DNA from: an uncultured Chloroflexia bacterium
GTDB taxonomy: Bacteria; Chloroflexota; Limnocylindria; Limnocylindrales; CSP1-4
Reading direction: 5' to 3'
Assembly: GCA_963746865.1 (NCBI GenBank)
Contig: CAVVDB010000007.1
Location: forward strand, 128,846-192,845
DNA: 64,000 bases
The notes beneath the pieces are model-generated. The model searched no databases and was not told where the DNA came from. It worked only from the letters and a program-made list of their open reading frames with translations. Shown here piece by piece: positions 3,839-48,312 of this stretch (positions are counted from its first letter, which is position 1; each line of letters begins with the position of its first letter). The position numbers and the translations under genes are program-made.

Positions 3839-3980
3839 CCCCGTCCCGCCGCATGCATCCCAGGCATCAGATTCGCCTGTTGTGAGCGTGGCCACCCCCG
3901 AGTTTCGTCAGAATCGGGCCATGGCCAAGCGCGTACGAGCCGATTCGCATGAGCAGGATGCATACGGGGGCGCGACGGGG
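3839..3980 (-). repeat. family A palindromic repeat, copy 1 (core ATGCAT..ATGCAT 3853-3963, 111 bp)
   Basis: Direct comparison with 9 other copies. Flanks extend the palindrome (CCCCGTCCCGCCGC / GGGGGCGCGACGGGG). Lies between convergent 3' ends. Confidence 0.9.
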
Positions 3981-4041
3981 CGCTGGGGCGGGCGCGGCGC
4001 GGGGGCGCGGGCGCGGGCGCGCGGGGACGCGGGCTGACCGG

Positions 4042-4825
4042 CTACGGCGACCGGCCCAGCTCCCGGCGCAGCCAGATCCCGAACACGAGGGCCCCGATCG
4101 CCGGCACGGCCGTCCAGGCCGTCAACACCAGCAGGACCACGATGAGCACCGCGTGGATGTCGTCGAGCGAGGCCTCGATCACCCCGGACCGGAGGCGCTC
4201 GGCGGCCGCGGCCGTGCTGTCGGCGAGCCGTTCGAGCGACGTCGCGTTGGCCGCCAGGGCATCGCTGTTCCCCTCCAGGCTGTCGCCGATGGCCGACAGC
4301 CGGGTATCGAGCCCCTCGATGCCATTGGCGATCGCGCCGACGGCGTCGGCGGCCGGGCCGAGCGGCGTCACGCCCAGGATGTTGACCGCCCGCAGGACGC
4401 CCTCGAGCGTTTCGAGGCTGGTCCGCACGCCGGCGATCGCGTCGGCGGCGGCGTTGACCCCCTCGGCGGTCTTGTCGATGGTGACGGTGAAGCTCTCGGC
4501 GGTCGCCGACGCGTCGTCGAGCGCGACCGCGGTCCGGTCGAGGATGGTCGCCAGTCTCGTCCACGCTCGTCTCGACGCGAGCGGCCAGCGAGTCGATCCG
4601 GCCGTTGACCCAGACGAGCGCACCGAGCCCGATGACGCAGACGACGAGCCCGATGACCCCGTAGGCGATGAGCCCGCTGCTCAGCCGATGCAGGCCGCCG
4701 CGCAGCCCGAGCGCGTGAGGCTCGTCCGCGCCCGGCGCCCCGGCGCGCCCGGCCGTCCCGGGTCCGCCCGGCTCCCCCTGCCCCGCCGGGCGGGGCTCGT
4801 ACGATTGCGTCTGGTCGTCCGTCAT
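4042..4825 (-). pseudogene. membrane-anchored hypothetical protein with one apparent frameshift near 4556
   Basis: N-terminus with TM helix LIAYGVIGLVVCVIGLGALVWV in the frame of ORF 3908..4825. Continuation LATILDRTAVALDDASATAESF... and C-terminal TM LIVVLLVLTAWTAVPAIGALVFGIWL in ORF 4042..4623. Confidence 0.5.
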
Positions 4826-5586
4826 GGCACCCAGCCCACCATGTCGCCCACCGCGGTCGGCACCGTCTGGACATCCGGCGCCAGTTCCGCAGCGTACTCG
4901 ACGAACGCCGCCGGCGGCTCGACCAATCGCTCGGGGAAGACCCGCCCGAGCGCGTGCGGCCAGTAGGTCCCCCAGTGGATCGGGACTGCCGCCCGGGGCC
5001 GGATCAGCCGCAGCGCCTGGGCCGCCCGGAGCGGATCGAGATGGAGCCCGCGGCCGAGCGTCGGCCCCCAGCCCCAGACGGGGATGAGCGCCATGTCGAT
5101 CGGTTCGTCGAGCTCGCCCATCCCGTCGAACAGGTCCGTGTCACCGGCGAAGTAGACGGTCTGGCTGCCGCGCACGACGTAGCCCAGCGGCGGCGCCGTC
5201 GGACCGAGCGGCGGCCGGTAGCCGGAGTGGACGGCCGGTACCGCCCGGACGACCACGCCGCCGACTTCGGCCGTGTCACCGACCGCCAGCTCGCGGACAT
5301 CGCGGAACCCGGCGCCACGCATCCACGAACCAGCCCCGGCCGGGACGAAGATCGGGGTCTCGCGGCCCAGGTCCCGCAGCGACGGCACGTCGAGGTGGTC
5401 CCAGTGGAGGTGCGAGATCAGCACCGCGTCGATGTCGCGCAGCCGATCGCGGGCCGGGACCGGCTCGACGCGTCGGAGCGGGCCCACCCGCCCGCGGGTG
5501 ACCGGGTCGGTCAGGACGCGCACCCCGTCCATCGCCACGACCACCGCCGAGTGGCCGATGAAGTCGAGCGTGAGGCGTTCGCTCAC
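4822..5586 (-). CDS. MBL-fold metallo-hydrolase
   Basis: Last 254 aa of ORF 4822..6216: HLHWDHLD metal motif, FAGDTD, IPIHWGTY. GTG at 5586 gives a GTGA overlap with the upstream stop at 5583. Confidence 0.8.
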
Positions 5587-7700: not shown

Positions 7701-7711
7701 GCGGGCCTCCA

Positions 7712-8776
7712 CTAGCGGACGCCGGCCGGCACGAGGGCCGGTTCGGCGACACGGACGAGGGTTTCCTTCATCAGCAGGTTGACGCTGGCGATCGAATCGA
7801 AGCCGGCCTCCTCCAGGCGTCGGTCGATCGGCGCCTCATAGGTTCGCACGGGAGCGATCACCCCGTGGTTGAACCGATGATCGCCCTTGGCGGTCCGCGC
7901 GCCGATCACCCCGAGACCGAAGTCGATCAGGTCGGACACGTCGGCCTCTGGCCGGGCGATGATCTTGAGGTAGTGCGGCTGGTCCTCCTTGGCGACGCCG
8001 ATCTGGAGGAAGCCGTCGAGCTGCGTGCCGTCCTTGCCGCCACCGTCCGAGGCCTGGACGAAGCCCTCGACATCGGCGAAGCGGAGGAGCGGTGTCAGGC
8101 TCGACCGCGGGACCCGCCAGTGCGATCCCTGGCGCTCCCAGTCCGCCAGCCGGATCGCCTCGAGGCGGGCGACCGGGGCCGGCGTCGCGAGCGCGTACAG
8201 CCGCGACAGCGGGAGCGCGTCGAGCGAGGTCGCCGGGCGGATCCGGCAGCCGGCAGCTCGATCGTCCGGCCACGCGTCCGGAAGCGCCTTGCCCGCGGCG
8301 CGGACCAGGACGTGCTCCTCGCCGTAGCGCATGAAACCCGCCTGCATCAGCAGCTCGACGTTGCCGTCGACGTCGGCGCAGGCGACGTGGAAGCGGGCGG
8401 CGGCGCGTTTGGCGCCCTCGCGCAGGAGCTGCTGGACGAGGCGGTAGCGGATGTCGCCGGCGTTGGCCATCCCGACCGCATCCAGCTCCACGATCGTCCA
8501 CTCGTCGCGGACCGTCTCGCGCTCCACCCGGACGAGCCCGGCGATCCGGCCCTCCTCCTCGTACACGAACATCAGGTCGTTCGGGCGGAAGGCGCCCAGC
8601 GGCAGGCGGAAGAGGCTGAACACGCCGATCGGGGGGCCGTTGACCGGCAGGCCGAGCGAGCGCGTGTCGGCGGAGTCGGACTGGCACAGGCGCGACAGCT
8701 CCCCGAGCGCGGCGAGGTCGGTCAGGCGCGCCGCCCGGACCTTGCCGGTGCTGCGCGGGCTCCGCATGGCGCTCAC
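7712..8776 (-). CDS. GNAT-family acetyltransferase-like protein
   Basis: 354 aa. [11 protein letters not shown]...[24 protein letters not shown] resembles a GNAT acetyl-CoA site. Alternative ATG start at 8767. Confidence 0.6.
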
Positions 8777-8783
8777 GTGGCGC

Positions 8784-9440: not shown

Positions 9441-9469
9441 GTCGCGGTCGCCGTGTGGGTCGTGTCGCC

Positions 9470-10503: not shown

Positions 10504-10553
10504 GGCCCGCGTAGGCCCGCGAAGGCCCGCGATGGCCGGCGTGGGCCCGCGTA
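10504..10553. repeat. 10-bp tandem repeat x5 (GGCCCGCGNN)
   Basis: GGCCCGCGTA GGCCCGCGAA GGCCCGCGAT GGCCGGCGTG GGCCCGCGTA read directly. Abuts family A copy 2. Confidence 0.8.
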
Positions 10554-10665
10554 TGCATCTCACTCATGAGATTCGAGCCGGACACGCTTGGCCATGCCCC
10601 GATTCGGACAGAAGTCGGCCATGGCCACGCTCACTGATCGCGATTCGCATGAGTGGGATGCATAC
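10551..10665 (+). repeat. family A palindromic repeat, copy 2 (core 10553-10663, 111 bp)
   Basis: ATGCATCTCACTCATGAGATTCG...CGATTCGCATGAGTGGGATGCAT. Lies between the PNPOx-like 3' end and the pdxS 5' end. Confidence 0.9.
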
Positions 10666-10707
10666 GACCCATCACGACGGCACGTGGCGGCGGCGCCGGG
10701 CCTCGGC

Positions 10708-11519: not shown

Positions 11520-11540
11520 GCCGGCCCGCCGGGGAGACCG

Positions 11541-12341
11541 CTAGCGGGCGACCGTCCGGACGACCCCCGACATCAATTTCGTTGCGCGTCGGGCCGCTCC
11601 CGGTGACAGCCGCGAGAGCGCCTCGACCAGGTCGATGACGTCCTGGTCCGGCAGCCCGGCCAGGAGGTCGAACAAGCGAAGGATCGTCGTATCCGGAACG
11701 CGGCCCAGGAGCTGCAACGATCGCTCGAGTTCGCGCGGCTCGACCTGCGGCACGAGCCCGACCGCCCGATCGAACAACCGGACGAACACGAGGAACGCCG
11801 CCAGCCAGTCGCGCAGCGCAGCCAGTTCGGTGTCGCCCGGGTTGGCGGCCAGCGCGGCCGTCGCCTCGCGTTCCTTCTCCTCGAGGACCGCGACGATCGG
11901 ATCACCTTCGCGGACCTTCCGCTCGGCGATGACCCGGCCGAACCACTGCCAGTGGTCCCCGACCGCCAGGTACGCCGCCCCGGCCGGGCCGCGCCGACCC
12001 ACCCGGCGTGGTTCCGGGACCCGCTCCACGATCCCCCACGACTCCGCCTCGGCGAGGGCCAGGCTGGCGGCCCGGTGGCTGAGCCCCAGCGCCTCGCGCA
12101 CTTCGCGCTCGGTCAGCGGCTCCTGGCGGGCCATGAGATAGGCCTGGACGCGGGCGATAGCCGGGGCCACGCCCCACGCCGCGCCCATCTCGCCCCATGC
12201 CTCGGCCAGCTCGATCCGGATCGTCTCGGCCGTCTGACTGGGCAGCGGGCCGTCGACGTCGTCGGCGTGACCGTTCGAGCCGTGCGATTCCGCACCGGCA
12301 GCCATAACGTGCGACTTGACAGTAGCCTGTTTAGCGCTCAT
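11541..12341 (-). CDS. winged-helix (MarR/GbsR-like) transcriptional regulator
   Basis: 266 aa. ARVQAYLMARQEPLTEREVREALGLSHRAASLALAEAESWGIVERV resembles a wHTH. The start may be the second Met (12305), because the first codons lie in a low-GC promoter-like stretch. Confidence 0.55.
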   Translation of the reverse strand: MSAKQATVKSHVMAAGAESHGSNGHADDVDGPLPSQTAETIRIELAEAWGEMGAAWGVAPAIARVQAYLMARQEPLTEREVREALGLSHRAASLALAEAESWGIVERVPEPRRVGRRGPAGAAYLAVGDHWQWFGRVIAERKVREGDPIVAVLEEKEREATAALAANPGDTELAALRDWLAAFLVFVRLFDRAVGLVPQVEPRELERSLQLLGRVPDTTILRLFDLLAGLPDQDVIDLVEALSRLSPGAARRATKLMSGVVRTVAR

Positions 12342-12344
12342 AAC
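12316..12344 (+). promoter_or_regulatory. candidate sigma70-type promoter (TTGACA-N17-CATAAC) for the 12377 gene
   Basis: TTGACA at 12316 with 17-bp spacer, in a locally AT-richer divergent region. Imperfect inverted repeat TGACAGTAGC...GCTATGTCA spans it. Confidence 0.3.
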
Positions 12345-12376
12345 TTGCTATGTCAGAGTAGCACGGAGGATCGGCC

Positions 12377-12943
12377 ATGATCACCGCCAACAGCGTCGAA
12401 CGCTCCTCGCCATCTACGTCACCGGTGGTCTCGTGGGCGACCCGAGCGGATCTGGCCGAGTCCGAGCCTCACGCCTCCAACCCACGCGCATCGTTCCTCG
12501 GGGCGGTGGTCGCTTTGGCGATCTGTGTTGCGATCGGCATCCACGGCGCTCTCGAGGCGTCCGCCGGCTGGCTCGCTGCGGTGATGGGACTTCCGGGTGC
12601 GGTGTTGGGGGGCTGGTACCTCGCACCGCGGGTCGTCAAGGCGAGCCGATGGGGTGCGATCCGAGCCGCAGGCTGGTTGGCGGTGGTCGCTGTCGTGATC
12701 GGGGACGCCGTCACATCGGTGGTCATAGCAGCTTCGATCGTCGCGGGCAGCCTGGCCGACCCGGTGGACTCGTCCGCTGGCCCAGCGACGCCCCTCCTCG
12801 TCTTCGGCACGATCCCGCTGGCGTTCATGCTGTTTGTTGTCGGGCTGGTGGTCTCCGGTTTCGCGCTGGTCATCGCATTCCCGGCTGCGCTCGTCTGGGC
12901 CGTGATCGTTCGGCGGCTCGCCGGGCGCGGATGGGCGCGGTGA
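12377..12943 (+). CDS. hypothetical polytopic membrane protein
   Basis: 188 aa with several hydrophobic helices. GGAGGA lies 6 nt upstream of the ATG. Confidence 0.5.
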   Translation: MITANSVERSSPSTSPVVSWATRADLAESEPHASNPRASFLGAVVALAICVAIGIHGALEASAGWLAAVMGLPGAVLGGWYLAPRVVKASRWGAIRAAGWLAVVAVVIGDAVTSVVIAASIVAGSLADPVDSSAGPATPLLVFGTIPLAFMLFVVGLVVSGFALVIAFPAALVWAVIVRRLAGRGWAR

Positions 12944-13401
12944 CCGCTCGCTGGCGGGGCGCGTTGGCCGGCCTCGTGCCGATGCTGGCGATCGCCCTGC
13001 TGTTCGTCGTCAGCGGCACCGGGGCATCGCCGCTCCAGCTCGCAGGTTCGTTCACGTTGGTGACCGTCGGAACCACGGCCGCCGGTTGGCTCGCCGGACC
13101 CCTTGCCGCGTCGGAACCGCGCAGAATGCTCATCGCCACCCTCGGGTATGCCATCGCCCTCATCGGAGCGATGGTTGCCGGCTCGGTGGTCCAGGGGATC
13201 GTCGAGGTGATCTCCACCGATGGACCCGACCCCGTCGCGATCATCTTCGCGATCATCTTCGGCGTCATCGTCAGGCTCACATACGCGGTCGCTGGGATCC
13301 TCTACTTGATGGGTCCGGCGCTCGCTCTGGGGGCTGCCTGGACCGTGGCGGCACGCGGCCTGATCCAGATCGCCGACAAACGGACAGCATCGAGCGCCTG
13401 A
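12931..13401 (+). CDS. hypothetical polytopic membrane protein
   Basis: C-terminal 156 aa of ORF 12316..13401 from ATG 12931 (MGAVTARWRGALAGLVPMLAIALLFVV...). The upstream part of that ORF overlaps the 12377 gene out of frame. Confidence 0.5.
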   Translation: MGAVTARWRGALAGLVPMLAIALLFVVSGTGASPLQLAGSFTLVTVGTTAAGWLAGPLAASEPRRMLIATLGYAIALIGAMVAGSVVQGIVEVISTDGPDPVAIIFAIIFGVIVRLTYAVAGILYLMGPALALGAAWTVAARGLIQIADKRTASSA

Positions 13402-13404
13402 CGC

Positions 13405-13908
13405 TCACCCGTCGCGGCGGTCGAGCTCCTCGCGGAGGGCGCCCAGGATCTCCAGCTCGATCCGGTCTTTGGGTCGGCCGGCGGCTCGCTTCATGTCCAT
13501 GAGGTCGCCGAGGCCAGCTACGCGAACCTCGATGCCGAAGATCGTGGCGGCGATCGACCGGCTCCGAAGCGTCTCGAAGTCGAGGTGTGGGTCCGGATGG
13601 GCGAGGAGATCGAGATCGCCGAACCGAGTGGACAGCGTGAACACGTCCCCGGCGCGCAGCGCTCGGTGATCGATCGGCGCGACGATGCCGGGCTCGAGGT
13701 TGCGGCGGATCGCCGCGAGGGACTCGAGGGCGTTGCTCAAGCGTTGGAGGTTCTCCCCATCGAGAGCGAAACAGATGTCCACATCACCGGTCAGCGACGG
13801 TGATCCGTGGACCTGCGATGCCAGACCGCCGATCAGGACGAAACGGACGCCGGTCTCATGCAAGGTCCGCAGGATCTCGCCCGCCTGGAGTAGCGGATGC
13901 TCGCTCAT
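13405..13908 (-). CDS. nucleotidyltransferase-fold protein (putative toxin-like partner of the upstream HTH)
   Basis: 167 aa. FVLIGGLASQVHGSPSLTGDVDICF is a minimal NTase G[SG]...D.D-type motif. 4-bp overlap with the HTH gene. Confidence 0.6.
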   Translation of the reverse strand: MSEHPLLQAGEILRTLHETGVRFVLIGGLASQVHGSPSLTGDVDICFALDGENLQRLSNALESLAAIRRNLEPGIVAPIDHRALRAGDVFTLSTRFGDLDLLAHPDPHLDFETLRSRSIAATIFGIEVRVAGLGDLMDMKRAAGRPKDRIELEILGALREELDRRDG

Positions 13909-14231
13909 TCGGCGACTCGCCGGATCGACCGGCGGAGTTCAACGAAGTGCTGGTCGTTCGCGATCGCGACGGCGAGGCGTTCGGACGGTGTCAGCCGGAG
14001 TAGGGCCTGTATCTGCGTGCGATCGATACCGATGCCTAGACGCGGCATCGACTCCAGCCCGTAGCCGCACGCCTCCAGCAACCGATCCAGCGTCCCGGCC
14101 CGCGGGTCGACCCGGCCGCGCTCGATGCGGGCGATCGTCTCCTGCGGGATCCCGGCCTTCGCCGAAAGCTGGCGCTGGGTCAGCTTGGCGCGACCGCGCG
14201 CCTCGCGGACCATTCGACCGGCCATCGACAT
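13905..14231 (-). CDS. XRE-family helix-turn-helix protein (putative antitoxin)
   Basis: 108 aa. LTQRQLSAKAGIPQETIARIERG is a classic XRE HTH. Confidence 0.8.
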   Translation of the reverse strand: MSMAGRMVREARGRAKLTQRQLSAKAGIPQETIARIERGRVDPRAGTLDRLLEACGYGLESMPRLGIGIDRTQIQALLRLTPSERLAVAIANDQHFVELRRSIRRVAE

Positions 14232-14320
14232 CGCAACCTCCTTGATGACGTAAACATCATCAGACCGGCGACGACGAACGTCAAGGCCACCCGCACGTCC
14301 GCGGACCTATCATCGGAACC

Positions 14321-15937: not shown

Positions 15938-16914
15938 CCGGGGTGGCGCGCCAGCTTCGGAACCTCGCCCTGCGCCGTGATGTCGACTGGTCGCCGTTGA
16001 GACGCGACGAGACTGTCGTCCGTCTCGATATCGACGGGGACGATGACTACCACCGGCGGGCCTCTGCGATGATCGGCGGCCGCATCGATGTCAGGGCGAG
16101 CGTCGGCGACAAGTACGGTCGATCTGGTCCGCGGGACCTCGAGTTCCTCCGTTTCTATCCGCACCTTCGCCAGCTCGACGTGGGTGAGGGCGCGCTGACC
16201 TCGCTGGACGGCCTACGGCACCTGCCCGACGACGTCACCGAGATCTGGATCGGCGCGACGGACAAGCGCATCTCGTTGTCGCCGCTACGCCGGTTCCACA
16301 GCCTGCGGACGCTGTACCTGGAACGACAGCACCGGGACATCGAGGTGATCGGCGAGCTGGCCGCTCTCGAGGACCTGACGCTACGCTCGATCACACTGTC
16401 GGACCTCTCCATCCTGGTGCCGTTGGCTCGGCTTCGGTCACTCGATATCAAGCTGGGCGGAACGACGGACCTTCGACTGTTGCCGAGGATCGGACGGCTT
16501 GCGTACCTGGAGCTCTGGATGATCCGCGGTCTCGAGGACGTCGACGCCATCGGCGAGGTCGTGACCCTGGAGGAGCTCTACCTTCAGGCGTTGAAACGGG
16601 TCACCCGTCTGCCATCGTTTCGCCGCCTGGACCGGCTGCGCAAGGTGACGCTCGAAAGCATGCGCGGGTTGACCGATCTCCGGCCGGTCGCCGAGGCGCC
16701 GAACCTCGAGACGCTCTGGCTGATCGACTTCCGACACGCTGCGCCAGAGGTCATCCGTCCGTTCATCGGGCATCCGGCATTGCGGGAGGGCACCTGGGGG
16801 TTCGGCAGCACCCGGAAGAACTTCGCGGCGCAGGACCTGCTTCCGATCGACCCGGAACTGACCGATCGCGCGGAGTACGAGCGGTTCCTGCGGGAGTTTC
16901 GGAGCCGCGGCTGA
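15934..16914 (+). CDS. leucine-rich-repeat (LRR) protein
   Basis: C-terminal about 326 aa of ORF 14743..16914, from GTG 15934 overlapping the upstream stop. Repeated L..L..L.L units ([64 protein letters not shown]). Confidence 0.7.
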
Positions 16915-19140: not shown

Positions 19141-19956
19141 GTGACGCCCTCGTCGGCCACCCTTCGCATCGAGCGCTCCGGGCCGGGCGACGTCGTGGCC
19201 CGCGTGACGCTGTCGCGGCCGGACGTCCACAACGCCTTCGACGCGACGATGATCGCCGACCTCCGGACGACCTTCGCGACGCTTGCCCGGGAGGACCCGA
19301 CCCGGCTCCGGGCGGTCGTGCTGGCCGGCGACGGACCATCGTTCTGTGCCGGCGCGGACCTCGGCTGGATGCGCGCGGCGATGGCCCTCGACACCGAGGG
19401 CAACGAGCAGGACGCGATGGCCATGGCCGACATGTTCGAGACCATCGACACCTGCCCGGTGCCGGTCATCGCGCGGGTCCAGGGCTCGGCGCTTGGTGGC
19501 GGGATGGGCCTGTGCGCGGTCTCGGACCTGGTCATCGCCGAGTCCGGGGCACGGTTCGGGTTCACCGAGACGCGGCTCGGGATCCTGCCGTCGGTCATCA
19601 GCCCGTTCGTGATCGCCAAGATCGGCGAGAGTCACGCCCGGGCGCTGTTCCCCGGTGGCCGGCGCTTCGATGCGACCCGGGCGGCGCGGATCGGGCTGGT
19701 CCACGAGATCGTCGAGGGCGTCGAGGCGCTGGACGCGGCAGTGGAGGTGGCGGTCGCCGACCTGCTCGCGGCGGGCCCGACGGCGGCGCGGGCAGCGAAG
19801 GCGGTCGTCCGCGAGGTGCGCGGGCTGGGCCATGGCTCGGCGAAGTGGCACACGGCGCGCGTCATCGCGAGACAGCGGACGAGCGAGGAGGCCCAGGAGG
19901 GCTTCCGCGCCTTCAGCGAGAAGCGCCGACCGGCCTGGGCCCCCGACCCGGACTAG
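19141..19956 (+). CDS. enoyl-CoA hydratase/isomerase family protein (methylglutaconyl-CoA hydratase by context)
   Basis: 271 aa. RPDVHNAFD, FCAGADLGWM, GSALGGGMGL, FTETRLGILP crotonase signatures. Confidence 0.85.
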   Translation: MTPSSATLRIERSGPGDVVARVTLSRPDVHNAFDATMIADLRTTFATLAREDPTRLRAVVLAGDGPSFCAGADLGWMRAAMALDTEGNEQDAMAMADMFETIDTCPVPVIARVQGSALGGGMGLCAVSDLVIAESGARFGFTETRLGILPSVISPFVIAKIGESHARALFPGGRRFDATRAARIGLVHEIVEGVEALDAAVEVAVADLLAAGPTAARAAKAVVREVRGLGHGSAKWHTARVIARQRTSEEAQEGFRAFSEKRRPAWAPDPD

Positions 19957-19992
19957 GTCGAAGCGGCGGTCACCGACGCCCCGCGACGCCCC

Positions 19993-20107
19993 GCATGCAT
20001 CCTGCTCATGTGAATCGACGTGAACGAGCGTGGCCATCCCCGACTTCTGTCGGAATCGAGGCACCGCCAAGCGTGCAAGACGCCGATCTCATGAGTCAGA
20101 TGCATGT
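19993..20107 (-). repeat. family A palindromic repeat, copy 3 (core 19995-20105, 111 bp)
   Basis: ATGCATCCTGCTCATGTGAATCG...GATCTCATGAGTCAGATGCAT. Lies between the hydratase 3' end and the sigma factor 5' end. Confidence 0.9.
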
Positions 20108-20215
20108 CGCGCTCGCCGGCGGGCATCTTCGGCCGCGACTCACCCGTTTCGCCATCCCCGCGCATCTATCCGGCATGCAGATCTCGAGGGACGCCGAACC
20201 AGTCGAGCGTCGGCC

Positions 20216-20743
20216 GTGACGGTCGAGGCGCTTCGTCGCGGCGAGCCGGATGTCCTGGCCACCCTCCTCGACCAATTCGGCGGGGAGATCCAGGGCGTCG
20301 CCTACCTGATCCTCCGTGACCGAGCCGCCGCCGAGGACGTCCTGAGTGAGACGCTGCTGACCGCCCTGGCCCGCGGCGCCTCGCTTCGCGACCCGGATGC
20401 CCTTCGGCCGTGGCTCCTCCGGATCGCCACGAACATCGCGCTCGGCCAGCGTCGGAAGGGCGGCCGGGTGATCGAGCTGCACCTCGTCGCCGAGCCGACG
20501 GCACCCCGACCCGGCCTCGACCCCGACGACCGCGCAGCCCTCTGGCAGGGCGTGTCGGGCCTGGCCCCGAAGATGCGCGCCGCGGTCGTCCTGCGGTACT
20601 ACGCCGACCTGCCCGTCGAGGAGGTGGCGACGGCCCTCGGCGTCAGCCCCAACACCGTCAAGACCCAGTTGAAGGCCGCCCTCGCCCACCTCCGCACCGC
20701 GCTCTCGGAACCGCCGGCACTCGCGGAGGTGCGACATGCGTGA
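20216..20743 (+). CDS. ECF-type sigma-70 family RNA polymerase sigma factor
   Basis: Region 2 (AEDVLSETLLTAL, RPWLLRIATNIAL) and region 4 (VVLRYYADLPVEEVATALGVSPNTVKTQL). GTG 20216 chosen because the ORF upstream of it is translated from the repeat. Confidence 0.85.
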   Translation: MTVEALRRGEPDVLATLLDQFGGEIQGVAYLILRDRAAAEDVLSETLLTALARGASLRDPDALRPWLLRIATNIALGQRRKGGRVIELHLVAEPTAPRPGLDPDDRAALWQGVSGLAPKMRAAVVLRYYADLPVEEVATALGVSPNTVKTQLKAALAHLRTALSEPPALAEVRHA

Positions 20744-22457: not shown

Positions 22458-22502
22458 TCCGACTGGCGGTCGCGGCCGTTCTATGCGACGATCGCGACAC
22501 GG

Positions 22503-25873: not shown

Positions 25874-25900
25874 AATCACCCGAAAATGAGGTTCTGGGGA
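25717..25900. repeat. two 48-49-bp direct repeats, a complementary 13-nt segment and a third partial repeat start
   Basis: 25717-25765 and 25786-25833 are near identical (GAGG[G]TT[C/T]TGGGTCGTTCGAACCAAGCGGAACTACCG[T/A]TCGCGTCGAGG). GTTCCGCTTGGTT at 25859-25871 is complementary to AACCAAGCGGAAC. GAGGTTCTGGGGA recurs at 25888. Confidence 0.75.
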
Positions 25901-25956
25901 GGCCGGGCCGGGCCAGGTCCAAGCACGCGCGCCCTCTTCTGCTATCGTCCCGCCAA

Positions 25957-30308: not shown

Positions 30309-31942
30309 CGGCCTCCGCGGCCGGCCCACCGCCGGCCTGAGCCGCCCGGGGCCCTCGCATGCATCCCACTCATAGGAATCGCCCCGAACGAGCGTGGCCA
30401 CCCCTCATTTCTGTCGATTCGGGGCCATGGCCAAGCGTGCAGAAGCCGAATCTCATGAGTGAGATGCATGCCCGGACGCCCCGGGCCCCCGCGGGTCGAA
30501 CGCACTACCGAGGCGTCCCAGGCCCTCCCGCCGGCGACAGCCGTCTCCGGTGGCGCCACCGGCCCCATCCCCGGCGCCAACATCGTTTCTCCCGACCCCG
30601 CCCAGTCGTCGCGCACCGGCCAGACCAGCCACAACCCGATGAGCATCGTGACGAGCAGGCTCAAGACCGCGACCTGATAGGCGCCGTTGTCGAACGTGTC
30701 GAGCAGCAGGAAGATGATCGCGCCGTACAGCAGCTGGCCGATGACCTGCGAGCCCTTGCCGACCAGCCCATAGATCCCGAAGAACTCGCCGATCTTGTCG
30801 GGCGGCGACAGCCGGACCATCAGCACGCGATCGGCTACGGTGACTCCGCCAAGGCCGCTCCCGAGGATCGCCCCCGCGATCAGGAACGGCACGATCCCGG
30901 CCGACCCGAACCCGATCGCCACGCCGCCGAGCACCAGCCCGACCGCCCACGACAAGAGCACCCAGATGAGCGTCCGCTTGGGTCCCTGCCGGTCGCACAG
31001 CCAGCCCCACACGAAGCTCATGACGATCGCCACCAGCGTCAGCATCAGCAGGATCAGGTTCGCCGAGGACTCGGACATGTCCATCGTCTTCACGACCACG
31101 ACGCTCATCACGATGATCACCGTGTTGACCGCATCGGAGTAGAAGAACCGACCGACCAGGAACCGGATCAATCCCGGGACCTCGCGCGCATGCGCGATCG
31201 ACCGACGCAGCTGCCCGAACGAATCCCGGATCTCGGCCGCGGTGATCGCCGGCTGGTCGGAGATCCGCTTCTCGCGCACGAACAGGAAGATCGGGATCGA
31301 GAAGACCAGGAACAGGATCGCGGTGAGCCGGAACCGATCGACCACCGCGATGTCCAGGAGCGCGATCAACAACCCGACGAAGACCGTCCCGCAGTACCCG
31401 ATCCCGGTCCCGAGACCGGATAACTTGCCCCGGGTCGCCGGCAGGCTGACCGACTTCAACGTCGCGTCGTAATAGATGAGGGCCGCCTGGTACGCGAAGT
31501 TGGCGACGATGAACAGGACGAGGCCGACGATCGGCGCCAGGTCCGCGATGAAGAAGGTCGCGCCGACGCACAGCAGCGTGAAGAACAACAGGAACGGCAT
31601 CCGCCCCGGACCCCGGTCCGAGAAGGCGCCCAGGATCGGTGAGACCAGCGCATTGATCCCGACGCTGATGACGACCGCGATCGACAGGAACAGGTTCCCG
31701 TCGCGCTCGCCGAACTGGTTGTCGTTGACCAGGTAGAGCCCGATCGCTCCCGAAACGACCGCGAACGAGAAGATCGTGTTCGCGAAGTCGTACAGGGCCC
31801 ACGACGCCGGGACGATCGCCCGGCCGCTGGGGGTGAGCCCGGCGAGCCCGCGTGGAGGCGCCGGGGACGCTGGACCGCGGGACGGGGCGGCGCTCGTCAC
31901 CGGCCGATGATAGCCGTCCAGACCGGGGTAGGATTCACCCAT
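30296..31942 (-). CDS. MFS transporter (UMF1/Atg22-like family) whose ORF reads through a family A repeat
   Basis: From Met at 31942 (MGESYPGL...). WALYDFANTIFSFAVV and many TM helices. The last TM ends about 100 codons before the stop, and the tail includes [16 protein letters not shown] translated from the repeat. Confidence 0.8.
   Translation of the reverse strand: MGESYPGLDGYHRPVTSAAPSRGPASPAPPRGLAGLTPSGRAIVPASWALYDFANTIFSFAVVSGAIGLYLVNDNQFGERDGNLFLSIAVVISVGINALVSPILGAFSDRGPGRMPFLLFFTLLCVGATFFIADLAPIVGLVLFIVANFAYQAALIYYDATLKSVSLPATRGKLSGLGTGIGYCGTVFVGLLIALLDIAVVDRFRLTAILFLVFSIPIFLFVREKRISDQPAITAAEIRDSFGQLRRSIAHAREVPGLIRFLVGRFFYSDAVNTVIIVMSVVVVKTMDMSESSANLILLMLTLVAIVMSFVWGWLCDRQGPKRTLIWVLLSWAVGLVLGGVAIGFGSAGIVPFLIAGAILGSGLGGVTVADRVLMVRLSPPDKIGEFFGIYGLVGKGSQVIGQLLYGAIIFLLLDTFDNGAYQVAVLSLLVTMLIGLWLVWPVRDDWAGSGETMLAPGMGPVAPPETAVAGGRAWDASVVRSTRGGPGRPGMHLTHEIRLLHAWPWPRIDRNEGWPRSFGAIPMSGMHARAPGGSGRRWAGRGGRQSG
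30357..30471 (-). repeat. family A palindromic repeat, copy 4 (core 30359-30469, 111 bp)
   Basis: ATGCATCCCACTCATAGGAATCG...GAATCTCATGAGTGAGATGCAT. Lies inside the 3' tail of the MFS ORF. Confidence 0.9.
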
Positions 31943-36027: not shown

Positions 36028-36028
36028 G

Positions 36029-37166
36029 ATGGGTGACGGGGCGCTCGCGCGCGCGCGCACGATCCTCATCGCGCCCGGATTCGTTCAAGGGGTCGCTGAC
36101 CTCGGTCCAGGTTGCGCAGGCCCTGGCCACGGGCTGGTCCCGTGCCCGACCCGACGACCGGATCCTCCTCTGCCCGCTCGCCGATGGTGGCGAGGGGACC
36201 CTCGAGGCGGTGGCCGCCGGCCGGCGGTTGGACCTGGCAGCAGACCCCCGCGACCGACCCGCTGGGTCGCCGGATCACGGCCCGCTGGCTCCGGTCGGAG
36301 GACGGCGCCCGGGCCGTCATCGAGATGGCCGAGGCGTCGGGCCTGACGCCGCGTCGCACCCGGCGAGCGCGACGCCGTGGCGGCCACGTCGGTCGGGACC
36401 GGGGAGCTGATCCGGGCCGCGCTGGACGCCGGGGCGACGACCGTGATCCTCGGGATCGGTGGCAGCGCGACGACCGACGGCGGGGCCGGGCTCCTTCGCG
36501 GCATCGGCGCCAAGGCCGACCGCGACGCAGCCGACCGTCGACCTCGCCGGCCTCGACCAACGGCTCGCCGACACCGACCTCGAGGTCGCCTGCGACGTCT
36601 CGAACCCGCTCCTGGGTCCGACCGGCGCGGCCGCCGTCTACGGTCCGCAGAAGGGCGCGTCCCCCACCGACGTCGCCGACCTGGACGGACGCCTGGCCGC
36701 CTTCGCCGACGCGCTCGAAGCGGCCGCGGGCGGGGCCAGCGTCCGCGACACACCGGGCGCCGGAGCCGCGGGCGGCGTCGGGTTCGGCCTCCTCGCGATC
36801 GGGGGCCGCTTCCATGCCTTCGCCCTCCGCCCCGGCGTGGACCTGGTCATGGACGCCACCGACTTCGACGCCCGCCTCGCCACCGCCGACCTCGTCATCA
36901 CCGGCGAGGGGCGGATCGATGCCCAGACCGGGTTCGGCAAGACCGCGCTCGGCGTCGCCCGCCGCGCCGCGGCCGCCGGCGTGCCCTGTATCGCGGTCGG
37001 TGGCGGCGTCGAACCCGACGGGATCGAGGCGCTCAGGGCCGTCGGCGCCATCGCGGTGCCCGTCGTCGAGCGCCCACAGTCGGTGGAAGAAGCCATGGCG
37101 GCCGGCACGGAGCCCGTCGAACGCTGCGGCGAGCGCCTCGCGCGGCTCGCGTCGATCGCCACCTGA
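36029..37166 (+). pseudogene. glycerate kinase, split over 5 frame segments (4 apparent frameshifts)
   Basis: ILIAP[D]SFKGSLTSVQVAQALATGW, LADGGEGTLEAV, VIEMAEASGL, TSVGTGELIRAALDAGATTVILGIGGSATTDGGAG, GPQKGA, ADLVITGEGRIDAQTGFGKT. These lie in different frames, changing near 36075, 36225, 36355 and 36515. Confidence 0.8.
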
Positions 37167-41584: not shown

Positions 41585-41589
41585 GTGAG

Positions 41590-44055: not shown

Positions 44056-44067
44056 CGGGGGCGGCCC

Positions 44068-44090
44068 GGGCCGGCACGGGGAGCCGGCCC
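44068..44090 (+). terminator. GC-rich hairpin after the TadG-like gene (no U tract)
   Basis: GGGCCGGC-ACGGGGA-GCCGGCCC, 13 bp after the stop. Confidence 0.3.
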
Positions 44091-44190
44091 CGGCCCGCGC
44101 TCACCCCGCGGCCGGTCCACGGCCCGTGCCGCGGCCGCGACCCCATCTGCATCCCGTCCGCGGCCCCAAGCCCAGTTCCATCGCGGCCGC

Positions 44191-44240
44191 ATGCATCTCA
44201 CTCATGAGATTCGCGTCCTGCACGCTGGACGGTGGGTCGC
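44191..44240 (+). repeat. family A left-arm-only half copy
   Basis: ATGCATCTCACTCATGAGATTCGCGTCCTGCACGCTGGACGGTGGGTCGCC matches the left arm, then diverges. Confidence 0.8.
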
Positions 44241-44260
44241 CGCACACGCCCGCCGCGGCC

Positions 44261-44375
44261 GCATGCATCTCACTCATGAGATTCGCGTCCCACACGCTTG
44301 ACGGTGGGTCGATTCCGACGGAATCGGGGGGTGGCCACGCTCATTCGAGGCGATTCCTATGCCTCAGATGCATGC
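44261..44375 (+). repeat. family A palindromic repeat, copy 5 (core 44263-44373, 111 bp)
   Basis: ATGCATCTCACTCATGAGATTCG...CGATTCCTATGCCTCAGATGCAT. Ends 9 bp before the stop of gene 44382..45179. Confidence 0.9.
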
Positions 44376-44381
44376 GGCCCG

Positions 44382-45179: not shown

Positions 45180-45258
45180 CGCCGATTCATAGCAAGGGGC
45201 GCTTATCCGGCACGTATCCGGCGCTCACCTCGCCGCCATACCGGTGTCGCGACGGGCG

Positions 45259-45373
45259 GTATGCATCCTGCTCATGAGAATCGGCTCGAACGAGCGTGGC
45301 CACCCCCGACTTCTGACGGAATCGGCACACCGTCAAGCGTGTACGACGTGAATCTCATGAGTGAGATGCATGC
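45259..45373 (-). repeat. family A palindromic repeat, copy 6 (core 45261-45371, 111 bp)
   Basis: ATGCATCCTGCTCATGAGAATCG...GAATCTCATGAGTGAGATGCAT. Centre is inverted relative to copy 5. Confidence 0.9.
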
Positions 45374-45427
45374 GGCGGCGGCGGCGGGCGGGGAGGCGCG
45401 GCGGGCCCGCCCTCGTCACGTTGGGCG

Positions 45428-45542
45428 GTATGCATCCTGCTCATGAGAATCGGCTCGAACGAGCGTGGCCACCCCCGACTTTTGACGGAATCGGCACACC
45501 GTCAAGCGTGTACGACGTGAATCTCATGAGTGAGATGCATGC
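45428..45542 (-). repeat. family A palindromic repeat, copy 7 (core 45430-45540, 111 bp)
   Basis: Differs from copy 6 at one position that I could see (CTTCTGACGG vs CTTTTGACGG). 169-bp period. Confidence 0.9.
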
Positions 45543-45616
45543 GGCGGCGGCGGCGCGCGGCGGCGGCGGCGGGCGACGCGGCGGCGACGGGCGCACGCGG
45601 CGGCGACGGGGGCGGG

Positions 45617-47067
45617 CTACAGATCCGAGGCGGGCTCCCCGGGGAGCGTCAACCGGAACGAGGCGCCACGGTCCACGGCCGCCGGGTCCAGCACCAGGTC
45701 CCCACCCATCCCGCGCATCAACGCCCGAGACACATACAACCCCAGCCCGCTGCCATTCCCGCTCGTCCGGCCCGCGACCCCCCGCTCGAACCGGCCGAAG
45801 AGCCACGCCCGGTCGCTGTCGTCCAGCCCCCGCCCGTGGTCGGTGATGGTCGTCCACAACGACCGCGCCCCCACATCCACCCCGATCTCCACGACCACGA
45901 CCCCCTCGCCGTACTTGACGGCGTTGTCCAGCAGCGCCCACAACACCTGGTCCAGCTGGTCGCCGTCGGCCACGGCCAGCCAGTCGGCGGCCCCGTCACG
46001 CAATTCCATGGCGCGGTCGCCGACCCCCAGCGCCTCCCAGGCCCGCAGGATCCGTGGCGCGATCGCCAGCACGTCGGCATTCGGCCGCGGCGGCTGCGAC
46101 TCCAGCCGGCTCACCAGCAACAGCTGCTGGACCATCCGCGTCAGGCGATCGGTCTGCTCCGAGATCACCGTCAGCCGCGGATCCGCGCCGCGCCACCGCC
46201 ACCGCCACCGCCACCGCCACCGGCGGCCAGCGCCTCGGCATTCGACTTGATCGAGGTCAACGGCGTCTGCAGGTTGTGGCTGACGCCGCGCAGGAAGTCG
46301 TCCTTGACCTCGCTCAGCCGGCGCAACTGGACGTTCTTCTCCTGGACCTGGCCGAACAGCTCCGCATTCCGGATCGCCACGCTGATCTCGATCGCGTAGA
46401 GATCCAGCAGCGCCTGGTCGGCCCGTTCCCAGGTCTGGGTGGCCGGAAGCACGGCCAGCAGCAACCCCATCCGCTCGTCGCCGGCCCGCAGCTCGGACCG
46501 GATCGGCACCGACACGCCCGGGATCCGCTCCTCCTCCTCGACGCTGTCGGGGTCCACGAAGCGCAGCTCGGCCGAGATGAACCCGAACGCCGTCTCGGCG
46601 TCGCGCGCGGCACGCTCGGCCAAGGCAACGGGCCCGTCGCGCGGCTCGGCCGATTCGACCGCCGCCAGGATCAGCCCCAGTTGTCGATTGCGACGCTGGG
46701 TGTCGCCGGCGAGTCGGTTGTGGCTCTCGGCCAGTTGGGCGAGCACGTCGCTGCCCTGGACCGGGATCGGCTGGCTCAGGTCGCCGGCCGAGACCCGCGA
46801 CACCGCACGCGAGATGTCGCGCAGCGGCCTGACGAGATCGAGCCCGATCGCCGCGCCACCCACGATCCCGACCGTCACCGCGATGGCGAACATGAACAGC
46901 AGGAGCCGCGAGCCGACCTGCGCATCGACCGCCCCGGTGGCGATCACCAGGATCCCGAAGATCCCGAGCGGGATGATCGCGGCGGCCAGGATGGTCAGGG
47001 TCAGGCGTGTCTGGAAGGAGAGGACGCGACGCTCGGGGGTGGGCTCGGGGGTCGGCGAGGGGATCAT
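45617..47067 (-). pseudogene. sensor histidine kinase (TM-HAMP-GAF-like-HisKA-HATPase), frame break next to a poly-Gly microsatellite
   Basis: ORF 46171..47067 ends ...FLRGVSHNLQTPLTSIKSNAEALAAGGGGGGGGGGAARIRG. ORF 45617..46168 continues [LT]VISEQTDRLTRMVQQLL...LDNAVKYG...GSGLGLY. A 1-nt indel near 46184-46190 joins them. Confidence 0.85.
46192..46221. repeat. hexanucleotide microsatellite (GCCACC)x5, i.e. (GGTGGC)x5 on the coding strand, encoding Gly10
   Basis: Read directly. Lies between the H-box helix and the following helix of the kinase DHp domain. Confidence 0.9.
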
Positions 47068-47077
47068 CCCTGTCCCG

Positions 47078-47809
47078 TCATGGCTCCGTGGCGGACGACA
47101 CCAGGCGATAGCCGACGCCGCGCACGGTGATCAGGTGGCGCGGGTGGTTCGGGTCGGTCTCGAGCTTCTGGCGGAGGCGCCGCATCGTGACCCAGACATA
47201 GGACGGCTCGGCCTCGTCGGTGACGGCCCAGCCGCGGTTGAGGAGCGTTTCCGTGGTGACCGTCTGGCCGAGGTTGGCGGCCAGGGCGAAGAGCAGCCGC
47301 GACTCCGTGGGGGTCAGCTGGACCGGCTGGCCGGCGACGACCGCCTGGCGTTTATGCAGTTCGAGGGAGAGATCCGGCCCCAGATCGAGCCCCTTGCGGG
47401 GGACGCGCTCGCCGACCCGGCGAAGGACCCGCTGGATTCGAGCCCGCAGCTCTGCATAGTTATACGGTTTGGTGACGTAGTCCTCGGCGAACTCGTCGAG
47501 CAGGTCGGCCTTGTTGTCGCCGGCATCGATGGCCGACAGGACGATGATCGGCAGGTCGGCGCGGGCCTTGACCTCGCGGGCGAGGGTCAGGCCGTCCATC
47601 CGCGGCATCAGCAGGTCGATGATCAGGAGGTCGGGCCAGGCGAGATCGAGCCGGCGGAGGGCCTCGTCGCCGTCGCGGGCCGTGGTGACATCGAAGCCGT
47701 CCAGCCGAAGCTGCTCGGCGAGCGGCACCAGCAGATCGCGGTCGTCGTCCACGAGCAGGATCCTTGGGGCCACAGGCCCGTGGGCCCTCGACGGCGCGCC
47801 GTTGAACAT
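47078..47809 (-). CDS. OmpR/PhoB-family response regulator
   Basis: 243 aa. ILLVDDD, DLLIIDLLMPRMDG, winged-helix LTPTESRLLFAL...ITVRGVGYRL. Confidence 0.9.
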   Translation of the reverse strand: MFNGAPSRAHGPVAPRILLVDDDRDLLVPLAEQLRLDGFDVTTARDGDEALRRLDLAWPDLLIIDLLMPRMDGLTLAREVKARADLPIIVLSAIDAGDNKADLLDEFAEDYVTKPYNYAELRARIQRVLRRVGERVPRKGLDLGPDLSLELHKRQAVVAGQPVQLTPTESRLLFALAANLGQTVTTETLLNRGWAVTDEAEPSYVWVTMRRLRQKLETDPNHPRHLITVRGVGYRLVSSATEP

Positions 47810-47855
47810 GGCCCCGAGTATAGGCGGGCCCCCTCACCCCTCATCGAGGCGCCGG

Positions 47856-48312
47856 GCATGCATCTCACTCATGAGATTCGCGTCCTGGCACGCTTGACGG
47901 TGGCCCCAGATCGACAGAACTCGGGGGGTGGCCACGCTCGTTCGGGGCGATTTGTATGAGCAGGATGCATACCGGGCGCGCGGGAAGGGGCGAGGAGGGG
48001 CGAGGCGCCGGGCATGCATCTCACTCATGAGATTCGCGTCCTGGCACGCTTGGCGGTGGCCCCAGATCGACAGAACTGGGGGGTGGCCACGCTCGTTCGG
48101 GGCGATTCGTATGAGCAGGATGCATACCGGGCGCGCGGGAAGGGGCGAGGCGGGGCGAGGCGCCGGGCATGCATCTCACTCATGAGATTCGCGTCCTGCA
48201 CGCTTGGCGGTGGCCCCAGATCGACAGAACTGGGGGGTGGCCACGCTCGTTCGGGGCGATTCGTATGAGCAGGATGCATACCGGGCGCGCGGGAAGGGTG
48301 AATAGGATGCAT
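47856..48312 (+). repeat. tandem array of three family A copies (cores 47858-47970, 48014-48125, 48169-48279) plus a terminal right-arm fragment (48301-48312)
   Basis: 156/155-bp period. Conserved linker ACCGGGCGCGCGGGAAGGGGCGAGG[A/C]GGGGCGAGGCGCCGGGC between copies. Confidence 0.9.

Follow-up and report, generated by a model that had tools for sequence, protein, structure and literature searches.

The window, by which we mean the whole 64,000-nt stretch of DNA that was analyzed, belongs to the MAG of a soil/freshwater-type bacterium of the Limnocylindria, an abundant and uncultured lineage of Chloroflexota. It carries a dispersed repeat, family A, whose full copies were located with the pattern ATGCAT-N(95-115)-ATGCAT. 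Exactly 10 intervals of the window match this pattern, against 0.01 expected by chance, and all ten full copies reported in the earlier note are thereby recovered at their positions. Eight of the ten are 111 bp long, as had also been reported, and the remaining two are 112 bp (48014) and 113 bp (47858). The copies and the intervals associated with them are listed below, with strands given relative to the asymmetric interior of the repeat.

3853..3963, minus strand: full copy of 111 bp, in the gap where two genes converge (ends at 3825 and 4042)
10553..10663, plus strand: full copy of 111 bp, 45 nt past the stop of a PNPOx-like gene (minus strand) and upstream of pdxS (minus strand)
19995..20105, minus strand: full copy of 111 bp, 39 nt past an enoyl-CoA hydratase stop and upstream of an ECF sigma factor
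30359..30469, minus strand: full copy of 111 bp, between convergent epimerase and MFS genes
36028..36111, no strand: empty intergenic site without a copy in the window; the L015 equivalent holds a 111-bp copy (8100-8210)
44191..44240, plus strand: left-half copy, model positions 1-49
44263..44373, plus strand: full copy of 111 bp, in the gap where a Tad-like and an XRE gene converge, with the XRE stop 9 nt away
45261..45371, minus strand: full copy of 111 bp, unit one of a 169-bp tandem duplication
45430..45540, minus strand: full copy of 111 bp, unit two of the duplication, 99% identical to 45261 and followed by a (GCG)n run
45617..47833, no strand: response-regulator and histidine-kinase segment, with family copies in inverted orientation at both borders
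47858..47970, plus strand: full copy of 113 bp, array unit 1, period 155 bp
48014..48125, plus strand: full copy of 112 bp, array unit 2
48169..48279, plus strand: full copy of 111 bp, array unit 3, the nearest of all copies to the family consensus
48299..48312, plus strand: right-end stub tgaatAGGATGCAT, after the initial 19 nt of the array spacer

Family A is dense, with 7 loci in 45 kb, and its copies are present in both orientations. Their GC content is 0.55-0.61 vs 0.70 for the host. ATGCAT sites are nearly confined to the copies, which hold 22 of the 24 in the window, where base composition would give ~3.8. Searches of the window with two models derived from the copies, a profile HMM and a covariance model, gave zero additional full copies. 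Of the two partial copies that had been proposed, 44191-44239/40 is genuine (model positions 1-49 matched, E = 2e-11); it and the full copy at 44263, which starts 23 nt further on, have a gcggccgc left flank in common. The other, 48301-48312, is reduced to the stub AGGATGCAT, 9 nt of the right end, and at a length too short for testing it is plausibly a family remnant that closes the tandem array. The copy at 3853 is chimeric, its interior fitting the minus orientation and its arms the plus orientation. Two candidate degenerate copies, window 52794-52921 (CM E = 0.06) and 7915-8135 of the syntenic relative L019, were indistinguishable from noise and were set aside.

The ten full copies make up seven loci and hence are not ten independent copies. 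Those at 45261 and 45430 arose as a single 169-bp tandem duplication, and those at 47858, 48014 and 48169 lie in a 155-bp unit repeated 2.9 times. In both cases flanking DNA is included in the unit, and tandem reiteration together with flanking DNA has been described for REP clusters (PMC3733652). All seven loci are intergenic, while ~84% of the window is coding. The earlier statement that the copies fall outside recognizable coding sequence is corrected for copy 30359, which lies inside a publicly called MFS CDS (P0121), within its non-conserved tail. When the copies, translated in six frames, were searched against 5.8 billion proteins to detect spurious ORFs in other genomes, the sole match was the window's own P0121. 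A second family with a homologous interior is found in L015, the closest relative retrieved (~83% nt identity to the window), where five copies, four of them exactly 111 bp, lie in 21 kb.

Five of the seven window loci had been placed at a gene 3′ end; our count is six of seven. With the L015 loci included, a gene 3′ end is adjoined at 10 of 12 loci, five of which lie between convergent genes. This placement favors an account in which family A is a host cis-element, each copy being held by selection at its own locus with mobility ancient or irrelevant, and serving as a bidirectional gene-end hairpin (for termination or mRNA 3′ protection) or as a target to which a regulatory or nucleoid protein binds. 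It is also in keeping with this account that L019 has a terminator-like hairpin of the ordinary type at the epimerase/MFS site, which carries the element in the window and in L015. However, the 47858-48279 array lies between divergent gene starts, and the strand-specific core has no consistent orientation to the upstream gene, the co-directional loci being split 3 to 2. A role as intrinsic terminator is further argued against by the GC-rich flanks and by the lack of a T-run after the hairpin; one weak internal site was flagged in one copy.

Each unit of family A spans 115 bp, GY-ATGCATC...GATGCAT-RC, in which one half is a diverged copy of the other in inverse orientation; each strand is thereby able to fold as one long imperfect hairpin. 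In 15/15 copies of the window and L015, the two arms form inverted repeats over their outer 15-23 bp. Every copy folds as a long hairpin, with z-scores of -0.9 to -6, and RNAalifold, the check suggested at the outset, likewise predicts a nested hairpin. The palindrome was said to continue into the flanks; this is true of the conserved G-Y...R-C, and there is no extension past 2-3 bases. Beyond the two conserved bases, flank complementarity is no better in true left/right pairs than in mismatched ones (p = 0.1-0.67). The apical loop GNCANAA and the core block CCACGCTC are invariant in 15/15 copies and the ends are kept, while the rest drifts to 50-69% identity. Such invariance also speaks for the cis-element account. 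The length constraint that had been claimed is corroborated by the sister family, in which 4/5 copies are 111 bp despite interior identities in this same range.

Upon analysis of both families together, we obtained a covariation score of 0.249 vs 0.148 +/- 0.015 for shuffled alignments, with 0/500 shuffles reaching the score. Compensating changes between the window and L015 were found at columns 11/102, 22/91, 40/73 and 43/70. Inside each genome the ends are uniform; from one genome to the other, 3 paired positions of the ends are changed, in both arms. As judged from these alignments, the inverted symmetry is maintained through changes on both sides. The cross-genome signal is mostly one split into two clades, and the covariation in the window copies alone is not significant (58/500 shuffles reach the score). 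Constraint on a folded structure, as first suggested, is backed by length and cross-genome covariation but not by the window copies taken alone, and the fold is not proven because one protein binding both ends equally predicts symmetric end change.

A stable fold with negative z-scores, pairs that in some cases change compensatingly, and a conserved apical loop and asymmetric core would also be expected of structured ncRNA genes or cis-regulatory RNA motifs (an sRNA, a riboswitch-like element or a ribozyme) of which one strand is transcribed. We consider this very unlikely. The copies occur in both orientations relative to neighbor genes, promoter-like sites are absent, the element is missing at syntenic sites in most relatives, and the tandem duplications and half copies are a better fit to repeat DNA. 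The nonsignificant covariation within the window tells against an RNA as well, as does the Rfam search, which returned 0 matches at gathering thresholds and none overlapping the copies even at E <= 10. An RNA role linked to the neighboring genes is not favored, as the copies at co-directional loci split 3 to 2 in orientation. Copy 3853 contains a hammerhead-like motif (CTGATG...CGAAAC), which we rejected since the other copies are without it and Rfam gives it no support. The left arm of the window copies can form ATCTCA-CTCA-TGAGAT, which the right arm and the L015 copies do not keep.

Comparison with L015 revealed how the two families have diverged. The L015 ends read GAY-ATTCCGC...GCGGAAT-RTC vs ATGCATC...GATGCAT in the window, and their 7-nt termini are identical in 10/10 arms, with interiors 50-69% identical. 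Four intergenic loci are occupied in both genomes. For instance, the epimerase/MFS locus (window 30359) is filled in L015 at 2327-2438, and the Tad-like/XRE locus (window 44263) is filled at 16388-16498 in reversed orientation. The two-gene segment 45617..47833 is inverted in L015 (17568-19852), again with copies at its borders. Four-fold degenerate sites show an identity of 0.70-0.75 between the window and L015. Copies at shared loci are 0.55-0.65 identical across genomes vs 0.53-0.68 for other pairs, with no excess, a comparison that is uninformative because the expected neutral identity, estimated from the four-fold sites, is ~0.64.

The four loci still occupied since a split that left four-fold site identity at only 0.70-0.75 are a further point for selection on a host cis-element at each locus. 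Locus-wise selection cannot, however, explain why all copies of one genome have common ends that are unlike the ends found at matching loci of the other, and three loci are empty in close relatives. On balance, we regard a host cis-element as unlikely.

The family is narrowly distributed. No copies were found in the syntenic relatives L001, L009-L014 and L016-L019, and at three window loci the lack of a copy is seen in relatives other than L015. The site of the 10553 copy is empty in L001, L009 and L010, that of the 19995 copy is empty in L001, and in L019 the terminator-like hairpin stands in place of the element between epimerase and MFS. Exact-pattern scans, two of GTDB species representatives and one of JGI metagenomes, revealed no family members with window-type ends, which the scans required, such that members with other ends would be missed. 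They gave 0, 1 and 6 matches, with no GC-rich family member among them. A Saccharibacteria match was dismissed, being on one strand only and matching the family profile at 20/111 positions (E = 0.63). Matches in the AT-rich L003 and L005-L007, which have GT-ATGCATCnnnCTCATnnGAAT in common, lie in an orthologous 227-bp foldback within ORF-poor DNA of 38% GC and were treated as unrelated. No match to the family was found in phages or plasmids, and blastn detected no ERIC/REP/BIME-like similarity in 5,426 E. coli genomes. Together with the Rfam result, this agrees with the earlier view that family A is not a named repeat family. Our literature search found no published description of Limnocylindria repeat content.

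No target-site duplication of 2 to 10 bp was found at consistent boundaries at the 7 + 5 loci, the most similar and hence youngest copies included, and all that the flanks have in common is a symmetric GY...RC in the window and GAY...RTC in L015. Filled-vs-empty junctions (window vs L001 and L015) were not cleanly alignable because the intergenic DNA is too diverged, so insertion of the copies is putative. The 64-kb window and the 21-kb stretch of L015 showed no transposase, RAYT-like gene or autonomous parent. These observations bear on the possibility that family A is a classical MITE, derived by deletion from a DDE-type IS and moved by cut-and-paste via its terminal inverted repeats. The 15-23 bp terminal inverted repeats, small size and lack of coding capacity would suit a MITE, as would the intergenic placement in both orientations, the restriction to a single lineage and the one filled/empty difference between the genomes. 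Nevertheless, with target-site duplications absent even at the youngest copies, no parent IS in the window or L015 sequence, and a palindrome that goes beyond terminal repeats to span the whole element with conserved inner blocks, we find a MITE quite improbable.

We also considered that the copies might mark gene cassettes as sites of site-specific recombination, integron attC-like or other, since chromosomal attC repeats such as VCRs resemble ~110 bp imperfect palindromes at gene 3′ ends, and a copy-bounded segment is inverted between the genomes. This is effectively refuted: the ends are ATGCAT, the RYYYAAC / GTTRRRY core sites are absent, the copies stand in mixed orientation among syntenic housekeeping genes, and no integrase is found in the window.

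Taken together, we assign a probability of roughly 0.55 to a reading in which family A belongs with the non-coding, non-autonomous repeats of the REPIN / MITE / ERIC kind and is spread by the mechanism outlined below. It is most likely a small non-coding mobile element, a previously undescribed 111-bp repeat, and the best reading of its history is vertical inheritance with end recognition by a putative lineage-specific protein. The sample, 7 + 5 loci in two genomes, is small, and mobility as such, the existence and kind of a protein acting in trans, and any advantage for the host are inferences. In a first step, a protein encoded elsewhere in the genome would recognize the identical 15-17-bp ends, set at a fixed distance and probably presented by the folded hairpin, and the unit would be copied or moved into intergenic DNA, usually within ~110 nt downstream of a stop codon. 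As there is no target-site duplication, an HUH/single-strand (RAYT-like) enzyme would fit better than a DDE transposase. In a second step, the family and its partner protein would pass vertically and diverge along with the host, which would give each lineage its own end sequence. Copies would then persist and turn over at the same favored intergenic sites, and their ends, core block and apical loop (GNCANAA) would stay near a functional consensus. Lastly, as side effects, tandem duplication and inversion of the intervening DNA could both use the copies as substrate, and gene 3′ ends would receive a strong hairpin.

Among known systems, ERIC / IRU elements are 127-bp imperfect palindromes of Enterobacteria, fixed in length, intergenic and probably transcribed, with no known transposase, no clear duplication and a copy number that varies among related species. 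Family A is likewise a long, fixed-length imperfect palindrome in both orientations, and it shares the placement in intergenic, probably transcribed DNA, the lack of a known transposase or clear duplication and the variable copy number, but it has no sequence similarity to ERIC and differs in length and host. Correia/NEMIS (Neisseria), RUP and BOX (Streptococcus) are also small, non-coding, intergenic and hairpin-forming, with terminal inverted repeats, and are capable of affecting neighbor genes; in contrast to family A, for which neither was found, they have regular target-site duplications (Correia: TA) and known or inferred DDE parents.

REPINs are ~100 bp long and extragenic, with two inverted conserved ends and a less conserved middle, and are vertically inherited (bioRxiv 10.1101/2021.07.10.451892). 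Family A resembles the REPIN-RAYT system as an extragenic hairpin of ~100 bp with this same layout, dense and almost solely extragenic, and without target-site duplication. Vertical inheritance, lineage specificity, sequence diversity within one genome and clusters tandemly reiterated with flanking DNA extend the likeness. It differs in that family A has no GTAG or CGTC tag of the known REP superfamilies (CGTC is present only in the variable inner stretch of some copies), its arms do not appear to be individually conserved REP stem-loops, and its middle holds the strongly conserved asymmetric blocks (GNCANAA loop and CCACGCTC). Moreover, no RAYT gene was seen in the 64 + 21 kb around family A, and its host belongs to the class Limnocylindria of the phylum Chloroflexota. 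A Chloroflexi example has been reported by Di Nocera et al. 2013, the GTAG-23 REPs of Thermomicrobium roseum, which are 20-40-bp GTAG-tagged units inside CCGSSCC...GGSSCGG palindromes (PMC3733652). Same phylum, high GC and palindromic extragenic repeats in GC-rich surroundings are common to both, but family A is 111 bp long and untagged, and its flanks lack a locus-specific palindrome. What is new is family A itself; its kind is already known, and it is one more example, with an odd evolutionary pattern.

No decayed copies were found in the window or L015. With ends and core blocks perfect and interiors diverged, this is unlike inert selfish copies and points to locus selection or gene conversion. 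In a related account, which we find rather unlikely, family A would be an intragenomic replicator, vertically inherited in Chloroflexota, whose ends are rewritten across the whole genome because a lineage-specific enzyme goes on converting or replacing resident copies in place. Gene conversion started at the ends is one example of such a process, and the enzyme could be of a new type, not necessarily RAYT. Same-locus copies differ in their genome-specific ends, yet keep the 111 bp, the apical loop and the core block. If true, dispersed bacterial repeats would here be evolving in concert by a mechanism not yet described.

For MAG annotation and for genome rearrangement in Limnocylindria, a repeat this dense is of practical relevance: assemblies break at it, called ORFs are lengthened by it (the MFS gene is a case), tandem duplications start from it and an inversion has it at the borders. 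With their shared loci, identical length and in-step end differences, the two sister families form a compact natural experiment that could reveal how dispersed palindromic repeats co-evolve with a protein that recognizes them.

A search of the window for ATGCAT-N(95-115)-ATGCAT returned ten intervals against a chance expectation of 0.01, and these were the ten full copies of family A described in the earlier note, with no others. Copies are named here by their start; eight of the ten are 111 bp long, copy 48014 is 112 bp and copy 47858 is 113 bp. The window contains 24 ATGCAT sites, of which 22 lie within family A copies, while base composition predicts ∼3.8. A profile HMM built on the ten copies recovered all of them together with a left-half copy at 44191-44239 and found no further copy in the window; the list from a covariance model was identical. 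Of the two partial copies noted previously, the one at 44191 was thereby upheld, and the other is merely a terminal stub. We grouped the copies by position using a codon-usage gene map and Pfam annotation:

3853, 30359 and 44191/44263: loci between convergent genes
10553, 19995 and 45261/45430: loci downstream of one gene and upstream of the next
47858-48279: triple array between divergently transcribed response-regulator genes
48301-48312: right-end stub at the tail of the tandem array, comprising the element's final 9 nt (AGGATGCAT)

Analysis by TRF showed that 45261/45430 is a tandem duplication of a 169-bp unit and that 47858/48014/48169 is a 155-bp unit repeated 2.9 times, with units that contain flanking DNA and are 96 to 98% identical. 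Since half copy 44191 and full copy 44263 also have their left flank in common, we count seven loci rather than ten independent events. The halves of the element are diverged inverted copies of one another, which gives it a polarity, and by this polarity four loci point one way and three the other. Copy 3853-3963 is a chimera, with arms that fit the + orientation of the consensus and an interior that fits the − orientation, as if the middle had been flipped between inverted arms. Very GC-rich simple or short-period repeats, among them a (GCG)n run, a 29-bp-period repeat and four units of GGCCCGCG, lie directly beside several copies (3964-4040, 10508-10552, 44123-44190, and 45541-45615) and may favor local tandem duplication.

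The conserved unit extends two bases past ATGCAT on each side (G-Y-ATGCATC ... GATGCAT-R-C), with G at −2 in 13 of 14 arms. Beyond these bases the flanks are GC-rich, and complementarity between true left and right partners did not exceed that of mismatched pairs (permutation p = 0.1-0.67). Hence, the palindrome, first described as usually continuing into GC-rich flanks, does not run on into locus-specific flanks. The suggested check of the flanks for target-site duplications was negative, as the copies are not flanked by direct repeats with a consistent length and offset. This argues against a classical DDE-type MITE and would favor a single-strand/HUH-type or otherwise duplication-free mechanism. 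Nowhere in the 64-kb window did we find a domain of a transposase, integrase, or HUH nuclease. Each copy forms a single long imperfect hairpin, with RNA fold z-scores of −1.9 to −6.0 and DNA fold z-scores, including those of the related copies in contig L015 described below, of −0.9 to −5.5. Conservation is uneven: little or no variation is seen in the outer 7 nt, CTCATG, the apical loop GNCANAA, and the right-inner block TGGCCACGCTC, and free variation in the left-inner partner as well as in the segments at columns 24-33 and 80-89.

Gene content in the window is that of ordinary bacterial housekeeping genes at ∼70% GC, and the copies have 55 to 61% GC. From the gene map, a gene 3′ end adjoins six of the seven loci, usually with the copy 10 to 110 nt past the stop codon; the 3′-end bias reported earlier therefore stands, with its count of five corrected. 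Such a bias is what one would expect of a host hairpin element, whether terminator, mRNA stabilizer, or protein-binding site, but no U-tract follows the hairpin and one array occupies a divergent promoter region. A strand-specific ncRNA is disfavored, as orientation relative to upstream genes is mixed (3 to 2 at co-directional loci), promoter-like sites are lacking, and Rfam gave no match either at gathering thresholds for the whole window or at E ≤ 10 for 44.1-48.4 kb. The empty Rfam search also agrees with the initial impression that this is not a named repeat family. All copies had been placed outside coding sequence, some with ORFs reading through them. Copy 30359 is in fact inside a public MFS CDS (P0121, 534 aa; 30296-31942, − strand), so that the element would contribute 37 in-frame codons to the translated product, but homology of P0121 to its L015 orthologue stops at residue 439, which puts the copy within a non-conserved read-through tail.

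Seven relatives (L001, L009, and L010-L014) are syntenic with the window over 3 to 27 kb, L001 at ∼85% nucleotide identity, and none has a copy at the 3853, 10553, or 19995 sites. This absence from close relatives also speaks against a host hairpin element. Using a faster-evolving TadG-like protein (85% amino acid identity), we found the closest retrievable relative, L015 (ENA ERZ25039492, a 169.6-kb contig), whose DNA is ∼83% identical over window 27,981-49,565. Despite the presence of zero ATGCAT sites in L015, the family HMM identified five copies there, of 112, 111, 111, 111, and 111 bp. Their ends are G-A-Y-ATTCCGC ... GCGGAAT-R-T-C; in the interior, which is homologous to that of the window family, both the loop and the CCACGCTC block are shared. 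Four of the five lie in intergenic regions occupied in the window as well (epimerase/MFS, Tad/XRE, and both flanks of a response-regulator/kinase pair); the fifth (8100-8210) lies between Usp-glycosyltransferase and glycerate-kinase genes, where the window has a short spacer. At the L015 XRE gene, the called stop codon falls within the end of a copy (L015 16489-16498). The family is dense, with seven loci in 45 kb of the window and five in 21 kb of L015. Because related copies occur at the same loci in two independent assemblies, an assembly artifact is excluded. The more distant relatives L016-L019 contain no family copies. At the epimerase/MFS site, L019 instead has a conventional terminator-like hairpin (AAAGCCCCTCGCC...GGCGAGGGGCTT; 2030-2090), a point in favor of the host hairpin explanation.

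Comparison of the two genomes supports a constraint on both the length and the symmetry of the element. Interior identity is 50 to 69% among L015 copies and 53 to 68% in cross-genome pairs, and despite this divergence nearly all copies of both genomes have a length of exactly 111 bp and can be aligned gap-free, bearing out the length constraint proposed from the window. Both arms changed between families at terminal pairs 3/110 (G-C to T-A), 5/108 (A-T to C-G), and 6/107 (T-A to G-C), with further double changes at pairs 11/102, 22/91, 40/73, 43/70, and 50/65. The covariation score was 0.249 compared with 0.148 ± 0.015 in shuffles, above all 500, although much of this signal comes from one two-clade split. 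None of the 500 shuffles reached the observed fraction of paired cells or the observed count of cells with changes on both sides, and the true register was better than every slid register; a full-palindrome version was run as well. RNAalifold independently predicted the same nested helices, with compensating changes in 8 of 21 pairs. Covariation in the window copies alone was not significant. The cross-genome data thus support the constraint on length and symmetry, but do not demonstrate a folded RNA, one of the structures first proposed.

The ends evolve in concert: each copy bears the ends of its own genome, shared loci included. Independent descent at each locus cannot account for this pattern, which requires family-wide replacement or conversion of copies in one lineage or both; a host hairpin element would not be expected to change its ends in concert. 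Copies at shared loci were no closer than other cross-genome pairs, which says little since identity at four-fold degenerate sites is only 0.70 to 0.75, with saturation at ∼0.48. In L015 the response-regulator and kinase segment (window 45617-47833) lies in the opposite orientation, and in both genomes it has inverted-orientation copies at both ends, which fits recombination between copies. The histidine kinase beside the copies is split by a frameshift in the window (− strand; 46171-47067, HAMP and HisKA start, and 45617-46168, HATPase_c), and its L015 orthologue is a single 493-aa gene; the split is either a pseudogene or an assembly indel error.

Searches for the wider distribution all demanded window-type ends or near-identity, and within that scope 185,579 GTDB species representatives yielded no match in one exact-pattern scan and one match in another (a Saccharibacteria contig, one strand only), and a scan of JGI metagenomes gave six. 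None of the matched contigs scored better than E = 0.63 against the family A profile. Blastn against phage, plasmid, and E. coli collections found no match. Six-frame translations of the copies, aimed at spurious ORFs over copies elsewhere, matched only the window's own MFS ORF among 5.8 billion predicted proteins. We regard the JGI palindromic matches as one AT-rich foldback locus in ORF-poor DNA, unrelated to family A. This 227-bp orthologous foldback (L003 1450-1565; L005 3788-4014; L006 3885-4001; L007 2404-2519) lies on contigs of 38% GC with hardly any ORFs, and its arms hold GT-ATGCATCnnnCTCATnnGAAT, a motif of the window family ends; it is probably eukaryote-like DNA and the likeness coincidental.

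Family A has the hallmarks of small bacterial palindromic repeats, being non-coding, extragenic, dense, present in both orientations, confined to a single lineage, and different in site occupancy between genomes. AttC-type sites are excluded by the missing core sites and the genomic context. Another hallmark is the tendency to local tandem reiteration together with flanking DNA, which has been described for REP clusters (PMC3733652). The description of REPINs fits best: they are ∼100 bp, with two inverted conserved ends and a less conserved middle, lie outside genes, are inherited vertically, and remain diverse in sequence as they persist (bioRxiv 10.1101/2021.07.10.451892). However, known REP superfamilies carry a GTAG/CGTC tag that family A lacks, so it does not belong to them, and no cognate RAYT was found in the 85 kb of sequence examined. 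Family A is a new, lineage-restricted family of the REPIN/ERIC/MITE kind. What stands out most is that, at shared loci, both ends have been rewritten in a genome-specific manner while the length stays strictly at 111 bp. All 15 copies retain perfect ends and core blocks, although their interiors have drifted heavily, and copies with decayed ends were found in neither the window nor L015, a poor fit to inert selfish copies. Across the 12 loci, this retention suggests selection at each locus, end-biased conversion, or rapid turnover at preferred sites.

Two stretches of the window, 12243-14303 and 19953-22484, have no aligned counterpart in L001; one holds an ECF sigma factor gene (20216-20743) and a 573-aa ORF without a clear domain. 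They are lineage-specific gene content, adjoining copy 19995. A ∼240-bp stretch also absent from L001 carries a second repeat, unrelated to family A (25696-25939), in which GGTTYTGGGTCGTTCGAACCAAGCGGAACTACCG.TCGCGTCGAGG occurs in direct order at 25720-25765 and 25789-25834 and inverted at 25854-25900.
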